Of a DNA stretch of 64,000 nucleotides, positions 7,522-57,349 are shown in pieces. Where the stretch lies: assembly GCA_900759105.1 (NCBI GenBank), contig CAAETY010000147.1:7431-71430 (forward strand), given 5' to 3'. This stretch comes from Peptococcaceae bacterium (GTDB lineage Bacteria > Bacillota > Peptococcia > Peptococcales > Peptococcaceae). Both the position numbers and the translations under genes were made by a program. Under the pieces are notes generated by a model that saw only the letters and a list, made by a program, of their open reading frames with translations, made no database searches and was not told the DNA's origin. Position 1 is the stretch's first letter. Each line of letters starts with the position of its first letter.

Positions 7522-8286
7522 TTAGACCTCCTCGGGATCGTTATGAACCGGGAACAGGATGGCAGCGATGCCGGAAATAACCACGGTTAGAATGATGATG
7601 ACGGTGCCGCTTGAAAGGTCACGCAGCCATGGGAGCAGGGTGGACGCATAGCTTGCAATAAAGCTAATCAGCACAATGGCACCGATTAAATGGTTGTTGC
7701 GACAAGGTGGGATGATAATGGCAAGAAACATTCCAAAGAGCGCCACGCCCAACGCTTCAACAATCACTGCCGGCAGCACATCTCCGGCAATAATACCGCA
7801 GGCGGTGCCAATTGCCCAGCCCGGAGAGGCGATGGCAAAGGCGCCGTAATTATAGAATGGGTTGATATAGCCGGGGCGCGCGATGCTGATGCCAAAGATT
7901 TCATCGGTAATGCCAAAGGCAACGAGAAAACGATGGTAGAAGGGCGTATTTTCGGAAAAACGTTGGCTCAAGGCGGCACTCATCAGCATGTAGCGGGCAT
8001 TGGCAATAAGGCTCATAAGCGCCATTTGCGTGTAGGTGCCCAATGCAGCGATGACAGTGAGGGCAGCATATTGACCGGCAGAGGCATTGACAAGGGCACT
8101 CAACAGAAAGCCTTGCAGTGCGTCAAGACCAACGGCACCGGCTTGGATACCCAAGGAAAAGGCGACGGCGAAATAACCGAGGGCGATGGGGATGCCGTCA
8201 AGAAACCCTTCGCGGAAGGCGGTGAGATTATCTTGATATGAATAGATACCGTGTTTTTCTTTTGGCAGGGATTGAAGCGCTGACAT
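7522..8286 (-). CDS. azlC: AzlC family branched-chain amino acid permease
   Basis: 254 aa polytopic protein with AzlC-type sequence pattern; a 2-nt gap separates it from azlD. Confidence 0.75.
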   Translation of the reverse strand: MSALQSLPKEKHGIYSYQDNLTAFREGFLDGIPIALGYFAVAFSLGIQAGAVGLDALQGFLLSALVNASAGQYAALTVIAALGTYTQMALMSLIANARYMLMSAALSQRFSENTPFYHRFLVAFGITDEIFGISIARPGYINPFYNYGAFAIASPGWAIGTACGIIAGDVLPAVIVEALGVALFGMFLAIIIPPCRNNHLIGAIVLISFIASYASTLLPWLRDLSSGTVIIILTVVISGIAAILFPVHNDPEEV

Positions 8287-48103: not shown

Positions 48104-48141
48104 GTTTTTACGAGCCACAGCCTTGCCTGTGGCTCTTTTTC

Positions 48142-48170
48142 TTGACTTTGTGTGGGCTTACGCATAAAAT
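48142..48170 (+). promoter_or_regulatory. sigma70 promoter TTGACT-N17-TAAAAT
   Basis: Consensus-like hexamers with a 17-nt spacer immediately upstream of the T-box leader. Confidence 0.6.
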
Positions 48171-48177
48171 AAAAGGA

Positions 48178-48397
48178 GCTATGAAGGGGCTTGTTGTGCC
48201 ATTCTTTACAGAGAGAGCCGGTGGTCGCTGTAAACCGGTTAAAGAAGGCATGATGTTCCACCCCGGAGCGTTGGCGTAATGGCCACGGTTGGCACCGTTA
48301 TCTGCTGCAAAGTGATGATGGCATATGCCGTCATAAACTGGGTGGTACCGCGGAACTTCTCCGTCCCTATGGATATAGGGACGGTTTTTTTATTTTT
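48178..48397 (+). promoter_or_regulatory. T-box riboswitch leader (tRNA-sensing antitermination)
   Basis: AGAGAGA (AG bulge) next to a short distal stem-loop GCCGG...CCGG; canonical T-box sequence AAACTGGGTGGTACCGCGG (48335-48353); terminator CCGTCCCTAT...ATAGGGACGG followed by T7 (48361-48397); candidate specifier UCC-A at 48257-48260. Confidence 0.8.
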
Positions 48398-48411: not shown

Positions 48412-49926
48412 ATGAACATCCTATTAGAGGAACAGCTTTGCGACGAAGCCATGGATGCATTAAACGCTTCGGCAGCAGAGGTCGTTGTTGACCCGAGCCT
48501 TGCTGCTGTCGGCACTGCGGATGCGGTGATTTTGACCGGACGCAGTCCTGTCCCTGATGCCTTATATGATGAAAAATCCTTGTTGCGTGTCGTTGGCTGC
48601 TTAAATGCGAACAATGCAAATTTTGATTTATCTCGTGCGACCCGCGCCGGGCGCATGGTATTGGTGCCGCATTATGGTGAAGCCGCATCAGTGGCGGAAT
48701 ATGCCATGCGCGCCATGCTCGATATGGCACGTAACCGTGCAGACGGTGCCATCGAGCTCAAGGGCAAGACCATCGGCTTTTTGGGATTTCCTCCTTTGGC
48801 CGGGGAAATTGCCCAACGTGCCAATGCCTTTGGCATGAAGGGCTTGTGCTATGACCCGGAACTCAATCGTGGTCGTGCCATGCTGCACAATGTGGAACGC
48901 ACCAATTTGGTAGATCTCTTTGTGCGTAGCGATTTTGTGCTTTTGGTGCAGCCTGCAAGCGAGTGGAGCAAGGGGATGATTGGCAAGGATGAAATTCAGC
49001 TCTTGCAAAAAGGCGCCGGGTTGATTTGTCTTACCGACCCACAAATTTTCCGCTGGGATGAATTGGTCATGGCCCTTGATTGGGAGTATCTCAGTCATTT
49101 CGCCATCGACTTGCCACAAAATCGTGCGCACTTGGCACGTGAAGTAAAAAAATACGGTGCAGTGACCGTTAGCGAAGCGGCCAATACCCGTGAAGCCCGC
49201 TTGGCCAACCAAGTGGAAATGGCACAGGATGTAGTGGCTGCCCTTCGCGGCGAACAGGTTGAAACCGCTATCAACATCACACGTGTGCATCTTGCCAACC
49301 TGCGAGAAGGCGGCGAATGGTGTAACCTCGCCCATACCTTGGGGCTCTTTATGGGACAACGCATGAAAGGCCTTGGTGGCAAATGTATCATTACCGAAAG
49401 CGGCAATGTGCCTTGCACAGAAAGTGATGCCATAGTGGCTGCGCTATTGGAAGGCATGGCCAAGGGGCTCGGTGAAACCACCATTAACCGCATCAATGCC
49501 CTGCTTTGGGCCGAAGAAAACGGTCTCAATTTAACCATCGAAAAAAAACCGGATGCAGCGGAAAGCCGTCTGCACCTTTCGGTGGAAACCAAGGAAAGCC
49601 ACTTACAGGTGGCCGGTACCCGAAGCGGTGGCCAAGCGCTTATTGTGCAGGTAGATGATTATGTGGTGCATGCACAGCCACGCACCCATTTGTTGCTCGT
49701 ACCGCACATCAATCGTCCGGGCTTGGTTGGACAGATTGGGACATTGTTGGGCGAAAAAAATGTAAACATCGCAGAAATGGTGTTGGGGCACAAGCCGCAA
49801 GACCGTACCACTGCGTTAATGTGGATCCATATCGAAGAAGCGTTGGATAAATCCATCAGCGAAGAGAGCCGCAAACTCGCCAGCGTGCTCAATATGGAAT
49901 ATATTCATTTACCAAATCAAGATTGA
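48412..49926 (+). CDS. type-I D-3-phosphoglycerate dehydrogenase homolog (ASB+ACT domains) with degenerate NAD-binding and catalytic motifs
   Basis: 504 aa; 2-hydroxyacid-DH fold; Rossmann motif reads GFLGFPPLAG rather than GxGxxG; by-eye alignment puts Asp and Glu at the positions of catalytic Arg and His; C-terminal ACT (HLLLVPHINRPGLVGQIGTLLG). Confidence 0.6.
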   Translation: MNILLEEQLCDEAMDALNASAAEVVVDPSLAAVGTADAVILTGRSPVPDALYDEKSLLRVVGCLNANNANFDLSRATRAGRMVLVPHYGEAASVAEYAMRAMLDMARNRADGAIELKGKTIGFLGFPPLAGEIAQRANAFGMKGLCYDPELNRGRAMLHNVERTNLVDLFVRSDFVLLVQPASEWSKGMIGKDEIQLLQKGAGLICLTDPQIFRWDELVMALDWEYLSHFAIDLPQNRAHLAREVKKYGAVTVSEAANTREARLANQVEMAQDVVAALRGEQVETAINITRVHLANLREGGEWCNLAHTLGLFMGQRMKGLGGKCIITESGNVPCTESDAIVAALLEGMAKGLGETTINRINALLWAEENGLNLTIEKKPDAAESRLHLSVETKESHLQVAGTRSGGQALIVQVDDYVVHAQPRTHLLLVPHINRPGLVGQIGTLLGEKNVNIAEMVLGHKPQDRTTALMWIHIEEALDKSISEESRKLASVLNMEYIHLPNQD

Positions 49927-49948: not shown

Positions 49949-51214
49949 ATGTTAGATATTAAAGAAATGCGTCGTGACCCTGAACGTGTGGCAAAAGCTG
50001 TAGGCCGCCGTGGCAAAGAAATTGATATGAAGCCATTCCTTGAAGCCGATGAAAAGCGTCGTCAAATCATCGCCAAGGTTGAAGAATTACAAGCACAACG
50101 CAACGCAAAGAGCAAGGAAGTTGGCCAACTCAAGCGCAACGGTGAAAATGCCGATGCCCTCATGGCAGAAGTAAGCGCCATCAAGGCAGAAATCGAAAAA
50201 CTCGAAGCTTCCAAAGAAGAAGTGGATACCTTCGTAACCAACTTTGTGGCAAGCATTCCAAACATGCCAAAGGATGACATTCCGGACGGCGGCGAAGACG
50301 ATTATCATGTAGAACGCACCTGGGGCACCCCACGCGAATTTGCTTTTGAACCAAAGGCACACTGGGAACTCGGTGAAGCCCTCGACATTTTGGACTTTAA
50401 CCGTGCTGCCAAGGTAACCGGTAGCCGCTTTGTATTCTACAAAGGCTTGGCTGCACGCTTGGAACGTGCTGTTATCGCATTTATGATTGATATGCACACC
50501 GACAAGCACGGTTATACCGAACTCATTCCACCATACATGACCAACAGCACTTCTGACTTTGGTACTGGTCAATTGCCTAAGTTTGCAGAAGACATGTTCC
50601 ACTTGGAAAACACCGACTATTACCTCATTCCAACCGCTGAAGTGCCTGTAACCAACTATCACAGAGATGAAATCCTCACCGAAAAGGACCTTCCTGTAAA
50701 ATATTGCGCATTCAGCCCATGCTTCCGTTCCGAAGCAGGCTCTGCCGGTCGTGATACCCGCGGTATCATCCGTCAGCACCAATTCCACAAGGTTGAAATG
50801 GTAAAGCTCGCACATCCTGATCATTCCTGGGAAGAGCTTGAAAGCCTGACCCACGATGCAGAAGAAGTGCTTCAAGCATTGGGCCTTCCATATCGTGTGA
50901 TTACCTTGGCTGCCGGGGACATCGGTTTCAGCTCTGCCAAGACCTACGACATCGAAGTATGGCTCCCAAGCTACGGCAAATACCGTGAAATTTCTTCCTG
51001 CTCCAACTTTGTAGACTTCCAAGCACGCCGTGCCAACATCCGTTTCCGTGACAACGATGGCAAAGTACGCTACGTACACACCTTAAACGGCTCCGGCTTG
51101 GCTGTTGGTCGTACCGTTTCCGCTATTATGGAAAACTACCAAAACGAAGACGGCAGCATTACCATTCCGGAAGCACTCGTTCCTTACATGCACGGGTACA
51201 CTGAAATTCGCTAA
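49949..51214 (+). CDS. serS: seryl-tRNA synthetase
   Basis: 421 aa; N-terminal coiled-coil arm plus class II core motifs ([21 protein letters not shown]). Confidence 0.95.
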
Positions 51215-51236
51215 TTCGTAAGGAGTAATGGAATCA

Positions 51237-52637
51237 ATGAAAAAAGACTTGGATTTTACACGTATTCATCGATTCGTATTCGATGATTTACACATCATGC
51301 TCGACGTGAACAGTGGCTCTGTCCATGTAACCGACGAAGCGGTGGATGCCTTCCTCGATGCCCTGGAGGAAGGTCAAGCATGGGACGATGCCATTGCGAC
51401 CACCGCAAAAGCCTATGGCGAAGAAGACGCCAAGGACATTGCCGAAGGCATTGAAGCCTTGATTGACGAAGGCATGCTCTTTAGTGATGTAGATTTTGCT
51501 GATTATGTACCGCATACCCAACCAATCGTGAAGGCAATGTGCTTACACATGGCCCATGACTGCAACCTGCGCTGTGGCTATTGCTTTGCGGACACCGGCG
51601 CATATGGCGGCGGTCGTTCCTTGATGAGCCTTGAAGTCGGCAAGAAAGCCATCGACTTCCTCATGGAAGCAAGCAAGCACCGTACCCATGTGGAAATCGA
51701 CTTCTTTGGCGGCGAACCACTCTTGAACATGGATGTGTGCAAGCAGGTGGCAGCCTATGCCAAGGAAAAAGCCGCTGAAAAAGGCAAAATCGTAAAGATG
51801 ACCATGACCACCAACGGGGTGCTCTTGGACGATGAATGTGCAAAGTGGCTCAACGAAGAAGAAATGGACGCCGTACTTTCCTTGGACGGACGTCCGGAGG
51901 TACACGACAACATGCGTCGTTTTGCCGGCGGCCAACCAAGCTACGAAGTGTGCAAAAACCACTTCCAAAACTTTGTAAACAGCCGTGACCACAAGCAATA
52001 CTATCTCCGTGGCACCTATACCCACTTTAACCCTGATTTTGCACAAGATGCCATCCACATGGCAGATGATTTGGGCTTTGTAGAGCTTTCCTTGGAACCG
52101 GTTGTAGCACCGGCTGACATGCCTTATGCCTTGACCGAAGAAGACAAGCCAACCATTCTCGAAAACTACAACATTCTCGCACGCCACTATTTGGATCGCT
52201 GGCGCGAAGGCAAGGGCTACAATTTCTTCCACTTTAACGTGGACTTTACCGGTGGCCCATGCCTGCCAAAACGTTTGAGCGGCTGTGGCTCCGGCCATGA
52301 CTACTTGGCGGTTAGCCCGGAAGGGGACCTTTACCCTTGTCACCAATTTGTAGGCGAAGAAGATTACAAGATGGGGACCGTATTCACCGGCATTGAAAAA
52401 CCTGAAATTGCCGAACGCTTCCAAAAAGCCAACGTCCTCACCAAGCCAACCTGCATGAAGTGCTGGGCACGTTTCTTCTGCAGCGGTGGCTGCCACGCCA
52501 ACAACATTCGTTACGGCGGTGGCATTAACGAACCGTACGAATACGGCTGCGATTTGCAACGCAAGCGCATTGAAACGGCAATTTACGTACAAACCGTGAA
52601 AATGATCGAAAGCGCTGAAGGAGGCGAGGACCAATGA
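51237..52637 (+). CDS. radical SAM/SPASM peptide maturase, SCIFF-maturase (ScfB/CteB)-like
   Basis: About 466 aa; roughly 100-aa N-terminal RRE-like extension; CNLRCGYC radical SAM cluster; C-terminal SPASM C-x2-C-x5-C-x3-C (CMKCWARFFCSGGC); strong recalled similarity to thioether-forming SCIFF maturases; ATGA overlap with pheA. Confidence 0.6.
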   Translation: MKKDLDFTRIHRFVFDDLHIMLDVNSGSVHVTDEAVDAFLDALEEGQAWDDAIATTAKAYGEEDAKDIAEGIEALIDEGMLFSDVDFADYVPHTQPIVKAMCLHMAHDCNLRCGYCFADTGAYGGGRSLMSLEVGKKAIDFLMEASKHRTHVEIDFFGGEPLLNMDVCKQVAAYAKEKAAEKGKIVKMTMTTNGVLLDDECAKWLNEEEMDAVLSLDGRPEVHDNMRRFAGGQPSYEVCKNHFQNFVNSRDHKQYYLRGTYTHFNPDFAQDAIHMADDLGFVELSLEPVVAPADMPYALTEEDKPTILENYNILARHYLDRWREGKGYNFFHFNVDFTGGPCLPKRLSGCGSGHDYLAVSPEGDLYPCHQFVGEEDYKMGTVFTGIEKPEIAERFQKANVLTKPTCMKCWARFFCSGGCHANNIRYGGGINEPYEYGCDLQRKRIETAIYVQTVKMIESAEGGEDQ

Positions 52638-53500
52638 GTGGTCTTTTGCCATCCTTTGCAGAACCTGTAAAAAAACCGCGCATTGCATTCCAAGGCATTG
52701 AAGGCTCCTTTAGCGATGGCGCTTGCCAAAAGGTGTTTGGCTCTGACGTTGAACGTGTCGGCATGCCACACTTTCAATATGTGGTAGAAGGCGTATGCAG
52801 CGGAGAATATGATTACGGGGTGCTCCCAATCGAAAACTCTTCCACAGGGAGCATTAACGATGTGTATGATTTGCTCAACGAAAACCCATGTTACATTGTG
52901 GGTGAAACATCACTTGAAATCACCCAAAACCTCATGGCTGTGCCGGGCACCAAGCTTGAGGATGTGGCCTATGTATACTCTCATCCCCAAGGCCTCGGCC
53001 AAAGCCAACGCTTTTTGATGCAGCACAATATTGAACCGCGCCCTTATGCGGACACTGCCATGAGTGCACGCTACATCGCCGAAACCCGCCCGGCAGACGG
53101 GGCGGCCATTGCTTCCAAGCAAGCGGCGGAAGTGTACGGCTTGGAAATTTTGGTGCCGCATGTAAACTTTAACTTTTCAAATATCACCCGTTTTGTGGTT
53201 ATTCGCAAAGAACCGGAAATCACCCCAAACCAAAATAAGGTGAGTGTGGTCTTTAAGACTGCGCACCGTCCGGGGGCACTGTTGGAAGCCTTGCGATTTG
53301 TCGCGGAAGCACACATCGACATGAGCCGCATTGAATCTCGCCCGGTCATTGGTAAACCTTGGGAATACAGCTTCTATGTGGATCTCTTGGGTCACTGGGA
53401 TGATGAAAACTTTATGTACTGCTTGGAACAGATGCAAGCAGTAACGGAAGATTTCCGCGTGCTCGGCACCTACGAAGCCGCAGAAACACACTATCTCTAA
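52634..53500 (+). CDS. pheA: prephenate dehydratase (PDT plus ACT)
   Basis: 288 aa; PDT domain plus C-terminal ACT; ESRP motif. Confidence 0.85.
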   Translation: MSGLLPSFAEPVKKPRIAFQGIEGSFSDGACQKVFGSDVERVGMPHFQYVVEGVCSGEYDYGVLPIENSSTGSINDVYDLLNENPCYIVGETSLEITQNLMAVPGTKLEDVAYVYSHPQGLGQSQRFLMQHNIEPRPYADTAMSARYIAETRPADGAAIASKQAAEVYGLEILVPHVNFNFSNITRFVVIRKEPEITPNQNKVSVVFKTAHRPGALLEALRFVAEAHIDMSRIESRPVIGKPWEYSFYVDLLGHWDDENFMYCLEQMQAVTEDFRVLGTYEAAETHYL

Positions 53501-53519: not shown

Positions 53520-54455
53520 ATGAAAGATCTCTTTTCCCACGTTGTCGGCGAAAACAACGTGAAACTCAACGAACCCCTTAGCGCCCACACTACCTTCCGC
53601 ATTGGTGGCCCTTGTGATGCAATGGCTTTTCCACATAGTGTGGATGAACTCGCAGCTGTGGTGCGCATTTGCAAGCGTGAAGGCTTGGATTATTTTGTGC
53701 TTGGAAAGGGTAGCAATATCCTTGTTGCCGACAAGGGCGTGCGCGGTGTGGTCATTGCCACCGAGTGCTTGCGCGCTCTCTTTATTCAAGACAATGCCGT
53801 TTGTGCCAGCGCAGGCCTTTCCCTCATCAATGTGAGTAAGGCTTGTGCCGAGCTTGGTTTGAGCGGTCTTGAATTTGCCAGTGGTATTCCCGGGAGCATC
53901 GGCGGTGCAGCGTATATGAATGCCGGTGCTTATGACGGTGAAATGAAGGATGTTGTTACCAGTGTGACCGTGCTTGATGCAAGCGGTAACATCCGTGAAA
54001 TCCATGCTGATGACATGCAATTTAGCTATCGCCATAGCCGCCTCAAGGAGGAACCCCTTGTTTGTTTGGCGGTGACGATGCAACTCAAGGACGGCGACAA
54101 GAAGGACATCCTTGCCCATATCGCAGACCTTTCCGAACGCCGTAGCAGCCGTCAACCTTTGGAGCTTCCAAGTGCCGGGAGCACCTTCAAACGCCCAACC
54201 GGCTATTATGCAGGGCCACTCATCATTGAAGCAGGCCTGCAAGGCTACACCGTGGGCGGCGCCCAAGTCAGCACCAAGCATGCTGGCTTTGTCGTGAATG
54301 TGGGCGATGCCACCGCTGATGACGTGATTCGCCTCATCCATCACGTACAACAAACCGTCAAGGCTCACCACGGCGTGGACCTTGAAACAGAAGTACGCTT
54401 TATCGGAAAGTGGGATGACCATCCGCTCTATCATGAGATTTTGCGTGCCGAATAG
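53520..54455 (+). CDS. murB: UDP-N-acetylenolpyruvoylglucosamine reductase
   Basis: 311 aa; FAD-binding PCMH fold; N-terminal HTTFRIGGP motif. Confidence 0.9.
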   Translation: MKDLFSHVVGENNVKLNEPLSAHTTFRIGGPCDAMAFPHSVDELAAVVRICKREGLDYFVLGKGSNILVADKGVRGVVIATECLRALFIQDNAVCASAGLSLINVSKACAELGLSGLEFASGIPGSIGGAAYMNAGAYDGEMKDVVTSVTVLDASGNIREIHADDMQFSYRHSRLKEEPLVCLAVTMQLKDGDKKDILAHIADLSERRSSRQPLELPSAGSTFKRPTGYYAGPLIIEAGLQGYTVGGAQVSTKHAGFVVNVGDATADDVIRLIHHVQQTVKAHHGVDLETEVRFIGKWDDHPLYHEILRAE

Positions 54456-54467
54456 CATACAAATGTA

Positions 54468-54509
54468 AAATAACCCTGTTTCCTATCGTGGGAAACAGGG
54501 TTATTTTGT
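54468..54509 (+). terminator. rho-independent terminator (left copy of the 29-bp repeat)
   Basis: CCCTGTTTCC-tatcgt-GGGAAACAGGG hairpin followed by ATTTTGTG. Confidence 0.8.
54474..54502. repeat. 29-bp direct repeat CCCTGTTTCCTATCGTGGGAAACAGGGTT (left copy)
   Basis: Identical to 57356-57384. Confidence 0.9.
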
Positions 54510-54713
54510 GTTGTAGCATATCTTCCTACTTATTAAGCGCATCCAACTTTTCAAAATTGCATCTAATTGCAAATCATCCATGCGATTGAGTTTATTTTTG
54601 ATTTCACCCAGGCTCTGTTGTATCTCTAAACAAGATGAGCGAATTTGAATCACCATCACCAATGTTATTACAAGTAGTATTGGTACAACAACCCAAAAAA
54701 TTAATTCTAGCAT
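54501..54713 (-). CDS. small single-TM protein with coiled-coil tail (island cargo)
   Basis: 70 aa; TM helix FWVVVPILLVITLVMVI; AT-rich gene; immediately downstream of the secreted-protein gene. Confidence 0.45.
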   Translation of the reverse strand: MLELIFWVVVPILLVITLVMVIQIRSSCLEIQQSLGEIKNKLNRMDDLQLDAILKSWMRLISRKICYNTK

Positions 54714-54731: not shown

Positions 54732-55652
54732 TTAAGCGAGGTATTGAGCATGTCCTTCTTCACTACCCTTTCCGGAAAATGAAATAGATCCTACATTAAA
54801 AGAAACCTCCACTGTACCGGGTGTCCAACTATGAAAGTAATATGCATTAATTAAAATCGTTCCGGAGGTCACAGGGCTGGCATTCGCCACAAAAGCTTTA
54901 CCAGCCTGACAATACTGTGGACTCCAAGATGTGGCATGTAACATTTCAATATCAAATTTCACATTACCATTACTTGTATATACAGGGTAGATGCGTTTAT
55001 TGGTATCCTCTAAATATCCATTCTCATCTTTATATATTAATTTGGCAGTGCTAGAACCTTGAACTACATAGCCATTAGAAATACATGCAGCAATTGGATC
55101 TGTATATTTTACACTTGGTGCACTATCCCAATGCCAGTAAATATTGTAATTACATTGTCCTGATGTACGAGAAACACTTGCTATATTAAATGCCAATTTC
55201 GAAGAGGCCGCTCTTACATCGGCATCTGATAGGTTTTCATAATTTCCTGATTTAATATTAGCGATAGCTTCTTTGGAAAGTCCTTTACTCACTAGTGCTG
55301 TCTTAGAAAGTTTCGCAGCATTATCTAAGACAATCTTTTTAGTACTTTCCGTTCTCAGCTTTTTTATATCATTTTCTTCCATTTTAAGATTTATTAATTC
55401 TTTGTCAGACATTTTTTTCATTTCTTCAATAGAATCAATTTCATAGCGTATTGACGCACCAGGTAGACTTGCAATCTCTTCATAAGTCAGGGTATCGTCG
55501 TTTGCTAAAAAGCCCTCATAAGTGCTATCCATTTCCAAAACTTGTGTCATATGAGAATTTTGTGCTGTAGCTGCACTTAGTGGTAATGCTAAACTCATCA
55601 TTAATAATACACTACATCCAAGCGCTACTGTTCTTCTTAATGTTTTTTTCAT
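54732..55652 (-). CDS. secreted hypothetical protein (island cargo)
   Basis: 306 aa; signal peptide with an AxA-type cleavage site; low-GC codon usage unlike the surrounding genes. Confidence 0.5.
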   Translation of the reverse strand: MKKTLRRTVALGCSVLLMMSLALPLSAATAQNSHMTQVLEMDSTYEGFLANDDTLTYEEIASLPGASIRYEIDSIEEMKKMSDKELINLKMEENDIKKLRTESTKKIVLDNAAKLSKTALVSKGLSKEAIANIKSGNYENLSDADVRAASSKLAFNIASVSRTSGQCNYNIYWHWDSAPSVKYTDPIAACISNGYVVQGSSTAKLIYKDENGYLEDTNKRIYPVYTSNGNVKFDIEMLHATSWSPQYCQAGKAFVANASPVTSGTILINAYYFHSWTPGTVEVSFNVGSISFSGKGSEEGHAQYLA

Positions 55653-55948: not shown

Positions 55949-57349
55949 GCTCTTCACGGATTTCGGTTGGAAAATAAAATAATTACAAAAACACGAGCAT
56001 GCCTCATACTGTAAGTATCCACACAAACCAGTAAAGGGAGGACATGCTCGTGTTTGATTTAGAGTTTAATGAACTAGACATGCTTTGTCAAGATAACCAC
56101 AGAGATGATACTTCTATAATTGTACAACCCGAAAAACATTCTATACCTTCTTCCTGTCCGCATTGTGGTTCTAAAATGTATCGTCATGGACTATATACGA
56201 GAAAATTGAAAGATATGCCCGTTTATCCAGATACTTCCTATACACTGATTATTAAAGCACAACGTTACCGTTGTCCACATTGTGGTTGTTCTATACGGCA
56301 GGAAATTTCTCATCGTTATCCAGGTACTAATATCACCAAACGTGCAGCTGCTTGGATTAAAGCTTCTTTGAACGCTAAATTTCCGGTGTCTCAGATTGAA
56401 GATATTACAGGAATTCATTGGGATACTATTCGTAAAATTCAAGAGGAACTCATTTCTCAAGCATTGAATGAGTATGAAAATTTACAGGTTAAAAACGGAT
56501 ATAAACCAAAGTATCTTGCAATAGATGAATTTGCGATTCGTAAAATGCACAAGTACGCTACTTGTGTCATGGATTTAGAAAAGGGGCATGTTATTTGGGC
56601 AGGATTAGGTAGAGCAAAGGCAGATTTTGAATATTTCTTCAAGGATATCCCTACATCTTATCTCGAACAAGTCGAGGTAGTTGCTATGGATATGAACGCT
56701 TCCTACAATCTTCTTGTTGAACAATATTTGCCACAAGCAACGATTGTCTATGATTGTTATCATATGCAAGCACAATTTGGAAAAGTGGTGCTTGGAGAAA
56801 CTCGTTTGGAAGCTGTCAAAGCACATCGCAAACAGGCTGAGCAACTCACTACACAAGCTGCGTGTGAAACGCAGGATGAAACAAGAAAAGTGTTGAAAGC
56901 ACAAGCCAAAGAAGAAAAACGAATATCAAGTCTACTCAAGAACAGTAAACAGCTCAAGGATAGTGAACAACAAAAATTAGCAACCATAGTGGAAAGCCAC
57001 GAAGAAGTGGCTATTTGCTATGCGATGAAAGAAGAAATGATGCGATTATATGAATTGAGAGATGAACAACAAGCGAGAACTGAATGGTTAAATTGGTTTG
57101 TGGCAGCAAAAGCAAGTGGTATTCCTGCCCTAGTAAAGTTTGCACAGTTAAAAGAAAAACGCTTACTGGGATTAGTCGCACATGCGACTATCCCGATAAG
57201 CACAGGTAAATTAGAAGGATTCAACAACGTTATACAGACTGCCAAGAGAACTGCTTATGGTTATCTGAATAATGAATTCTTCCTTAGGCTGATAAGATAT
57301 CTATCGCTACCGAAGGGATGAATTCCAATCGAAATCCGCGATGAACCAA
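55949..57349 (+). mobile_element. ISL3-family insertion sequence
   Basis: Terminal imperfect 25-bp inverted repeats GGCTCTTCACGGATTTCGGTTGGAA (55949-55973) and GGTTCATCGCGGATTTCGATTGGAA (reverse complement of 57325-57349) bracket the transposase ORF. Confidence 0.8.
56044..57321 (+). CDS. ISL3 family transposase
   Basis: 425 aa; N-terminal zinc-finger (CPHCGS...CPHCGC) and a DDE domain of ISL3 type. Confidence 0.9.
   Translation: MLVFDLEFNELDMLCQDNHRDDTSIIVQPEKHSIPSSCPHCGSKMYRHGLYTRKLKDMPVYPDTSYTLIIKAQRYRCPHCGCSIRQEISHRYPGTNITKRAAAWIKASLNAKFPVSQIEDITGIHWDTIRKIQEELISQALNEYENLQVKNGYKPKYLAIDEFAIRKMHKYATCVMDLEKGHVIWAGLGRAKADFEYFFKDIPTSYLEQVEVVAMDMNASYNLLVEQYLPQATIVYDCYHMQAQFGKVVLGETRLEAVKAHRKQAEQLTTQAACETQDETRKVLKAQAKEEKRISSLLKNSKQLKDSEQQKLATIVESHEEVAICYAMKEEMMRLYELRDEQQARTEWLNWFVAAKASGIPALVKFAQLKEKRLLGLVAHATIPISTGKLEGFNNVIQTAKRTAYGYLNNEFFLRLIRYLSLPKG

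Follow-up and report, generated by a model that had tools for sequence, protein, structure and literature searches.

The radical SAM maturase gene scfB in the window (the whole stretch of Peptococcaceae DNA that was analysed, 64 kb in length) is, in our judgement, highly likely to belong to a known ScfA/ScfB system whose two genes have become unlinked, with ScfB acting in trans on a canonical SCIFF precursor encoded at a separate single-gene locus. In the history that we propose, the usual scfA-scfB pair would have been broken up in the Peptococcaceae lineage of the window. The scfB gene would have ended up inside a housekeeping operon (T-box leader, serA-like, serS, scfB, pheA, and murB). Another site of the same genome would have kept or received scfA as a stand-alone gene of the type found at the metagenomic locus L066, with promoter-like and terminator-like elements to itself. 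The product of this action in trans would be a thioether-cross-linked ranthipeptide. The features of the scfB region are as follows.

48112..48135, plus strand: terminator-like hairpin (9-bp stem, 6 GC pairs, T-run) closing the S49 peptidase unit that lies upstream; the operon region starts here
48142..48170, plus strand: promoter-like site TTGACT-17-TAAAAT just 5' of the T-box (10/12 matches; a consensus match only)
48172..48371, plus strand: T-box leader (RF00230, 104.2 bits, gathering score 93), with its own terminator at 48361-48384
48412..49926, plus strand: serA-like D-3-phosphoglycerate dehydrogenase gene (2-Hacid_dh, PGDH_inter, and ACT domains)
49949..51214, plus strand: serS, seryl-tRNA synthetase, with a product identical to NCBI MEE0229282.1
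51220..51225, plus strand: ribosome-binding site AAGGAG, 11 nt 5' of the scfB ATG
51237..52637, plus strand: scfB, SCIFF thioether maturase of 466 aa with RRE, radical SAM, and SPASM domains
51237..51500, plus strand: RRE (leader-peptide-binding) domain, aa 1-88, from the alignment with CteB
51561..51584, plus strand: radical SAM cluster motif CNLRCGYC, aa 109-116
52452..52493, plus strand: SPASM motif CMKCWARFFCSGGC (C-x2-C-x5-C-x3-C), aa 406-419
52634..53500, plus strand: pheA, prephenate dehydratase (PDT and ACT domains), overlapping scfB by 4 nt
53520..54455, plus strand: murB, UDP-N-acetylmuramate dehydrogenase, the final gene of the operon
54467..54507, minus strand (the strand on which it was scored): 17-bp hairpin 3' of murB, possibly a bidirectional terminator

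The first-pass annotation placed the open reading frame at 51237-52637, with a gap of 22 nt from the end of serS (51214) and an overlap of 4 nt (ATGA) between the scfB stop and the pheA ATG (52634), and all of this holds on the sequence. A second candidate ATG at 51228 lies just 2 nt past the AAGGAG element (51220-51225). The 469-aa variant that would start there was rejected, since it is too near this element and is absent from the sequence collection. The 466-aa product is identical to P0317, the form recorded in public gene calls. The CNLRCGYC cluster and the C-x2-C-x5-C-x3-C SPASM motif that had been described are present at aa 109-116 and aa 406-419, and the N-terminal extension regarded as RRE-like deserves that name, as the CteB RRE domain can be aligned to the first ~90 aa. 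The earlier description of the scfB locus is confirmed as accurate and reflects no chance pattern.

The protein reaches 597.2 bits with the ScfB model TIGR03974 (cutoff 425; match over positions 1-449 of the 451 in the model) and aligns over its full length with CteB (PDB 5WGG; 483 bits; aa 9-454 of the window protein against 6-451 of CteB), so that its assignment to the ScfB/CteB type of thioether maturases stands. All 12 Cys residues that are invariant among 116 aligned ScfBs are present (102, 109, 113, 116, 342, 350, 368, 406, 409, 415, 419, and 438). It scored below the cutoffs of the "ScfB-related radical SAM/SPASM orphan maturase" model NF040492 (491.8 bits vs 855), QhpD (TIGR03906; 281.2 vs 453), and the PapB-type ranthipeptide maturases (NF047865; 250.4 vs 340). 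Membership among the anaerobic sulfatase maturases, which had been named as a finding that would speak against the assignment, was not found: the score with TIGR03942 was 103.1 bits against a cutoff of 349.45, and PDB anSME chains match at E=7e-12 only, across the core. Radical_SAM and Fer4_12 were found with Pfam, and the Pfam SPASM match (20.1 bits) is slightly under its gathering score of 21.5. By these family models, the window protein is a true ScfB.

The first-pass annotation had noted that no precursor adjoins scfB, and this extends to the full 64 kb. No SCIFF-like ORF was detected in the six frames of the window by Cys-density and regex scans, the matches of which were rejected as chance antisense frames only. 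We built two SCIFF HMMs of our own, the first from 10 peptides adjoining scfB in control loci and the second enlarged to 13, and the best score in the window was ~9 bits, compared with 79-99 bits for the 13 positive controls. A tblastn search of the window with the neighbours of sister-clade SCIFF loci gave no match, which argues that the window holds no decayed SCIFF locus. There is thus no SCIFF (TIGR03973) gene within ~500 bp of the window's scfB, which is a feature of genomic context and not of the protein, nor is there, as the annotation had allowed for, a co-transcribed scfA nearby. We found nothing in the literature on SCIFF together with Peptococc*, and no Peptococcus entry appears among the organism names of the best 120 SCIFF matches. 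As a separate observation, positions 8045-8119 on the minus strand encode 8 Cys in a stretch of 25 residues within a 73-codon open frame, which is un-SCIFF-like and probably a chance antisense frame.

The gene order around scfB was compared in relatives. The closest ScfB among species-representative genomes is that of UMGS1590 (assembly USCP01; 94% identical), and the complete 2.63-Mb chromosome OZ007004.1 encodes a ScfB that is 82% identical. The order DUF975, S49 peptidase, serA-like, serS, scfB, pheA, murB is kept in relatives whose ScfBs are 76-94% identical. In a distance tree of 116 ScfBs, the window protein falls in clade A, which comprises 41 sequences. Deeper members of this clade (L050 10001-19000; L051 1749-10665) show the order serS-scfB-gcvT-gcvH-gcvPA-gcvPB-pheA-lpd-murB, with gcv and lpd genes between scfB and murB, suggesting that the window's subclade lost the gcv/lpd block here. 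GcvH or GcvT as a link to the substrate was rejected, because the genes are absent in the window and its subclade and reflect inherited synteny. The clade-A loci that could be read (~25, among them L001-L019, L050, and L051) all lack a SCIFF in the 10 kb to each side of scfB. Sister clade B shows both states: a SCIFF adjoins scfB in L047, and none is present locally in L020, L021, L049, and L052. In the outgroups L046 and L048 (Desulfonispora), the genes follow the usual order, scfA then scfB.

L047 (10001-11685) is the closest SCIFF-linked relative (ScfB 59% identical) and has the inverted order, with scfA 152 nt downstream of scfB. Its scfA is followed by a nitroreductase gene, which also marks the SCIFF locus of the lineage of the clade-B maturase P0036. 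Two small ORFs beside scfB in relatives were rejected as precursors. One of 52 aa, upstream of scfB in L003-L005, has zero Cys and no family match. The other, of 96-112 aa with 8 Cys arranged as CxxC pairs, immediately precedes scfB, which has no local SCIFF, in L021 (9672-9962) and L020 (895-1233); it is zinc-ribbon-like, gave sub-threshold zinc-ribbon matches, and has no homologue in the window. Beyond this family, ScfBs from Proteocatella, Filifactoraceae, and Peptostreptococcaceae (L025-L031, L033-L035, L038, L041, L044) score 554-702 bits with TIGR03974, and a SCIFF was not found in their flanks (up to 10 kb per side). Two further loci, L094 and L096, have one SCIFF in common and lack a ScfB in the interval between -10 kb and +7 kb, and the tetranucleotide signature of L096 is nearest to that of Proteocatella L027 (r=0.74). 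Split scfA/scfB pairs may therefore recur in other families. The 90%-identity SCIFF cluster of P0123 includes four JGI entries of 397 aa that bear the name "cytochrome P450" (P0245-P0248), which could reflect either unusual clustering or a gene call that is a fusion.

When metagenomes were scanned with an alignment of SCIFFs of the Peptococcaceae type, 80 loci were recovered, in 68 of which the ScfB start lies 63-877 nt downstream of the SCIFF. At L066, on the human-gut contig OLPO01000228.1, the ~9.4 kb flanking the SCIFF on each side are free of ScfB genes. This peptide, MSKHIKTISAQKLQKTLKTGGCGECQTSCQSACKTSCTVGNQVCKN, scores 84.6 bits with TIGR03973 (cutoff 50). Its gene is flanked by those for a GNAT acetyltransferase and a TPR protein, with a TATAAT-like box and a ribosome-binding site on the 5' side and two hairpin/T-run elements on the 3' side. 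The gene order at this locus is ABC-ABC-GNAT-scfA-TPR-MocR. The exact SCIFF is found in three accession series as MDO4923455.1, MEE0229021.1, and MEF2824286.1. In the MEE series, the ABC-transporter and MocR-like neighbours at L066 are MEE0229018.1 and MEE0229023.1, and the exact SerS of the window, MEE0229282.1, follows the SCIFF by 261 accessions in one run. In the MDO and MEF series, ScfB and MurB of the window's 90% clusters are present as MDO4923019.1, MDO4923021.1, and MEF2824027.1.

Contig statistics and composition point in the same direction. The entry "5 contigs, longest 128,230 bp" is common to the exact ScfB, PheA, and MurB of the window (P0317, P0442, and P0455) and to four exact L066 proteins (P0366, P0381, P0396, and P0426), which suggests that one contig carries both the scfB operon and the L066 locus. 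However, the accession gaps amount to 259-436 proteins, which agrees poorly with a single 128-kb contig for both loci. When the tetranucleotide signature of L066 was compared among 26 loci, the window ranked first (r=0.85), followed by L006 (0.78), and the next-ranking loci are all from clade A; a control pair of contigs from one MAG gave 0.87. The SCIFF cluster of the L066 peptide has a leader signature of its own, AQKLQKTLKTGG, and clade B differs from it (QNLQxTVKKGG), as would be expected if precursor and maturase diverged together. Based on the accession runs of the MAGs (in which mis-binning is possible), the contig statistics, and the composition, we suggest that the SCIFF precursor is very probably encoded in the genome of the window at a distant single-gene locus. 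The L066-type peptide would then be the substrate of the window's ScfB.

An unlinked pair was also found within a single assembly of the sister lineage. GCA_949743265.1 carries the SCIFF P0125 on CATJSX010000118.1 (L054) and the locally orphan ScfB P0036 on CATJSX010000021.1 (L049), and the tetranucleotide correlation of these scfB and scfA contigs is 0.87. The nitroreductase gene, which is considered ancestral, still lies near the P0125 SCIFF, suggesting that in the P0036 lineage it was scfB that moved and scfA that stayed. In L053-L062 (e.g., L054 454-1776), the SCIFF lies 75 nt downstream of a gene for a 368-aa radical SAM protein. This protein was rejected as a short ScfB, because it belongs to the KamA family (TIGR00238, 252 bits), which is unrelated to ScfB. 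Since all ten contigs represent one species, the KamA-SCIFF pairing is so far without comparative support.

The state of the enzyme was assessed from its conservation. As a reference for the RRE, we took the 9 positions that are near-invariant in 11 ScfBs for which an adjacent SCIFF had been verified. Of these positions, eight (H11, L22, D23, S26, G27, H30, D33, and L75) are kept in ~100% of the 41 clade-A ScfBs, and the sole changed position is E71, replaced by G in 93% of the clade. The CteB strand with which the CteA leader pairs falls in this region (PMC6231123). The radical SAM and SPASM domains retain 93% and 95%, respectively, of the canonical invariant residues, similar to other ScfBs, and the dN/dS of scfB against four relatives is 0.06-0.10, comparable to serS and pheA. 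As judged from this conservation, the enzyme is constrained as would be expected of a SCIFF maturase that works and depends on the leader. From its homology with CteB and Tte1186 (PMC8326336), the window's ScfB would form a thioether in SCIFF, and the product would be a ranthipeptide.

The first-pass annotation called the maturase an orphan and proposed either that the precursor lies elsewhere or that the enzyme has been recruited to a different substrate. The former is the one that our results favour, with the SCIFF in the same accession runs as SerS, ScfB, and MurB in three MAGs and with matching composition; the orphan label and the recruitment are not borne out, as the RRE residues, the cluster Cys, and purifying selection are all retained. 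If scfA had been lost, ScfB might act on a protein of a neighbouring pathway or on an unrecognised Cys-containing peptide. Such a reading could draw on the lack of any SCIFF from -51 kb to +11 kb of the window's scfB and for 10 kb on either side in the ~25 clade-A loci, on gcvT and gcvH adjoining scfB in deeper clade A, on the change of the canonical E71 to G in 93% of clade A, and on the fact that NCBI holds a model for an ScfB-related orphan clade (NF040492). We consider it distinctly improbable, because in three MAGs a canonical SCIFF lies in the accession runs that also contain ScfB, SerS, and MurB of the clade, the leader-binding motif of the RRE is intact apart from E71, and the cutoff of NF040492 is missed (492 vs 855). 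The gcv neighbours are absent from the window's subclade, so the link of scfB with gcv is one of synteny and not of dependence, and of the small ORFs beside scfB in relatives, that of L003 (52 aa) has no Cys and the zinc-ribbon one of L020/L021 is missing in the window. We give practically no weight to the idea that the protein is a member of another SPASM subfamily that merely resembles ScfB (an anaerobic sulfatase maturase, QhpD, or PapB type). Although it has secondary matches to QhpD, PapB, and anSME (281, 250, and 103 bits), these are far under their cutoffs (453, 340, and 349) and the TIGR03974 score is far over its own; moreover, SCIFF genes adjoin scfB in L047, sister to the clade in which the protein nests, and in the outgroups L046 and L048.

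Even less likely than a true orphan is that the link to SCIFF is an artefact, in which L066 and the SCIFF entries of the MAGs come from another, co-binned organism and the proximity of accessions is accidental. MAG bins can be contaminated, accession blocks of successive MAGs abut, and a called copy of the exact SCIFF is present on 3 contigs only. However, the same pairing occurs in three independent accession series (MDO, MEE, and MEF), and the neighbour order at L066 agrees with MEE0229018, MEE0229021, and MEE0229023. The first rank of the window among the 26 loci by tetranucleotide similarity, the contig statistic common to exact L066 and exact window proteins, and the leader signature of the clade-A SCIFF cluster, which is distinct from that of the sister clade B, also argue against a co-binned source. 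We therefore retain the reading of a split ScfA/ScfB system.

In this split system, scfB is internal to the five-gene housekeeping operon serA-serS-scfB-pheA-murB. Its co-transcription with serS under T-box control is predicted from the 22-nt gap and the 4-nt overlap, and the T-box specifier, read by its position in the Rfam alignment, is apparently UCC (Ser). A serine T-box would thereby cover genes as different as those for a radical SAM peptide maturase, the phenylalanine pathway, and the cell wall. It is conceivable, but in our view rather unlikely, that the placement of scfB is functional, so that the serine T-box operon ties the level of the maturase and the output of mature SCIFF ranthipeptide to seryl-tRNA charging while the precursor is transcribed independently. 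If this were true, SCIFF would be a starvation or growth-state signal, and the coupling would offer a testable handle on its physiological role. Downstream of the operon, the minus strand carries a 306-aa ORF (54732-55652) whose N-terminus resembles a signal peptide and for which Pfam gave no match; a hydrophobic ORF of 70 aa (54501-54713) comes next. An ISL3-family transposase gene (56044-57321, plus strand; DDE_Tnp_ISL3 171 bits, Zn_ribbon_ISL3) lies 1.6 kb past the operon.

These results remove a false lead: a maturase that looks like an orphan in a 64-kb view is a normal ScfB with its precursor gene probably elsewhere in the genome. RiPP mining rules that require adjacency would miss the SCIFF systems of a whole clade of gut Peptococcaceae or mislabel them as orphans, and they may likewise fail for Proteocatella and Filifactoraceae. 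An arrangement with the maturase in a T-box-led serS operon and the precursor behind its own promoter-like site could also serve the study of SCIFF timing. The two genes are adjacent in 81 loci that we read (13 controls and 68 from metagenomes), and 234 radical SAM genes have been reported within 500 bp of scfA (PMC5300114), which makes the split atypical. As published pairs are adjacent, we regard the split layout as an organisational curiosity of relevance for genome-mining rules and not as a new kind of system.

Among known systems, the window's ScfB can be compared with CteB from Clostridium thermocellum (PDB 5WGG/5WHY), which matures the SCIFF peptide CteA. Both proteins have the RRE, the CX3CX2C motif, and the SPASM Cys. 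The gene cteA presumably adjoins cteB directly. In contrast, scfB of the window is internal to a T-box-led amino-acid and cell-wall operon, with no precursor for 51 kb upstream and 11 kb downstream. The NF040492 family resembles the window's ScfB as a close ScfB relative with no SCIFF alongside, but its score (492 vs 855) makes the window protein a non-member, and a SCIFF is predicted in the window's own genome.

The canonical scfA-scfB pairs (TIGR03973 and TIGR03974) were reportedly described by Haft and Basu in 2011. The window's ScfB and the L066 SCIFF resemble them in matching both family models, and the SCIFF core GGCGECQTSCQSACKTSCTVGNQ is identical. They differ in that the genes of the window's lineage are unlinked and have separate promoter-like sites. 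In the prochlorosin system, ProcM is a single leader-recognising maturase that acts in trans on ProcA precursors encoded at distant loci. ProcM, however, performs lanthionine chemistry on many diverse precursors, whereas the system of the window apparently has one highly conserved precursor.
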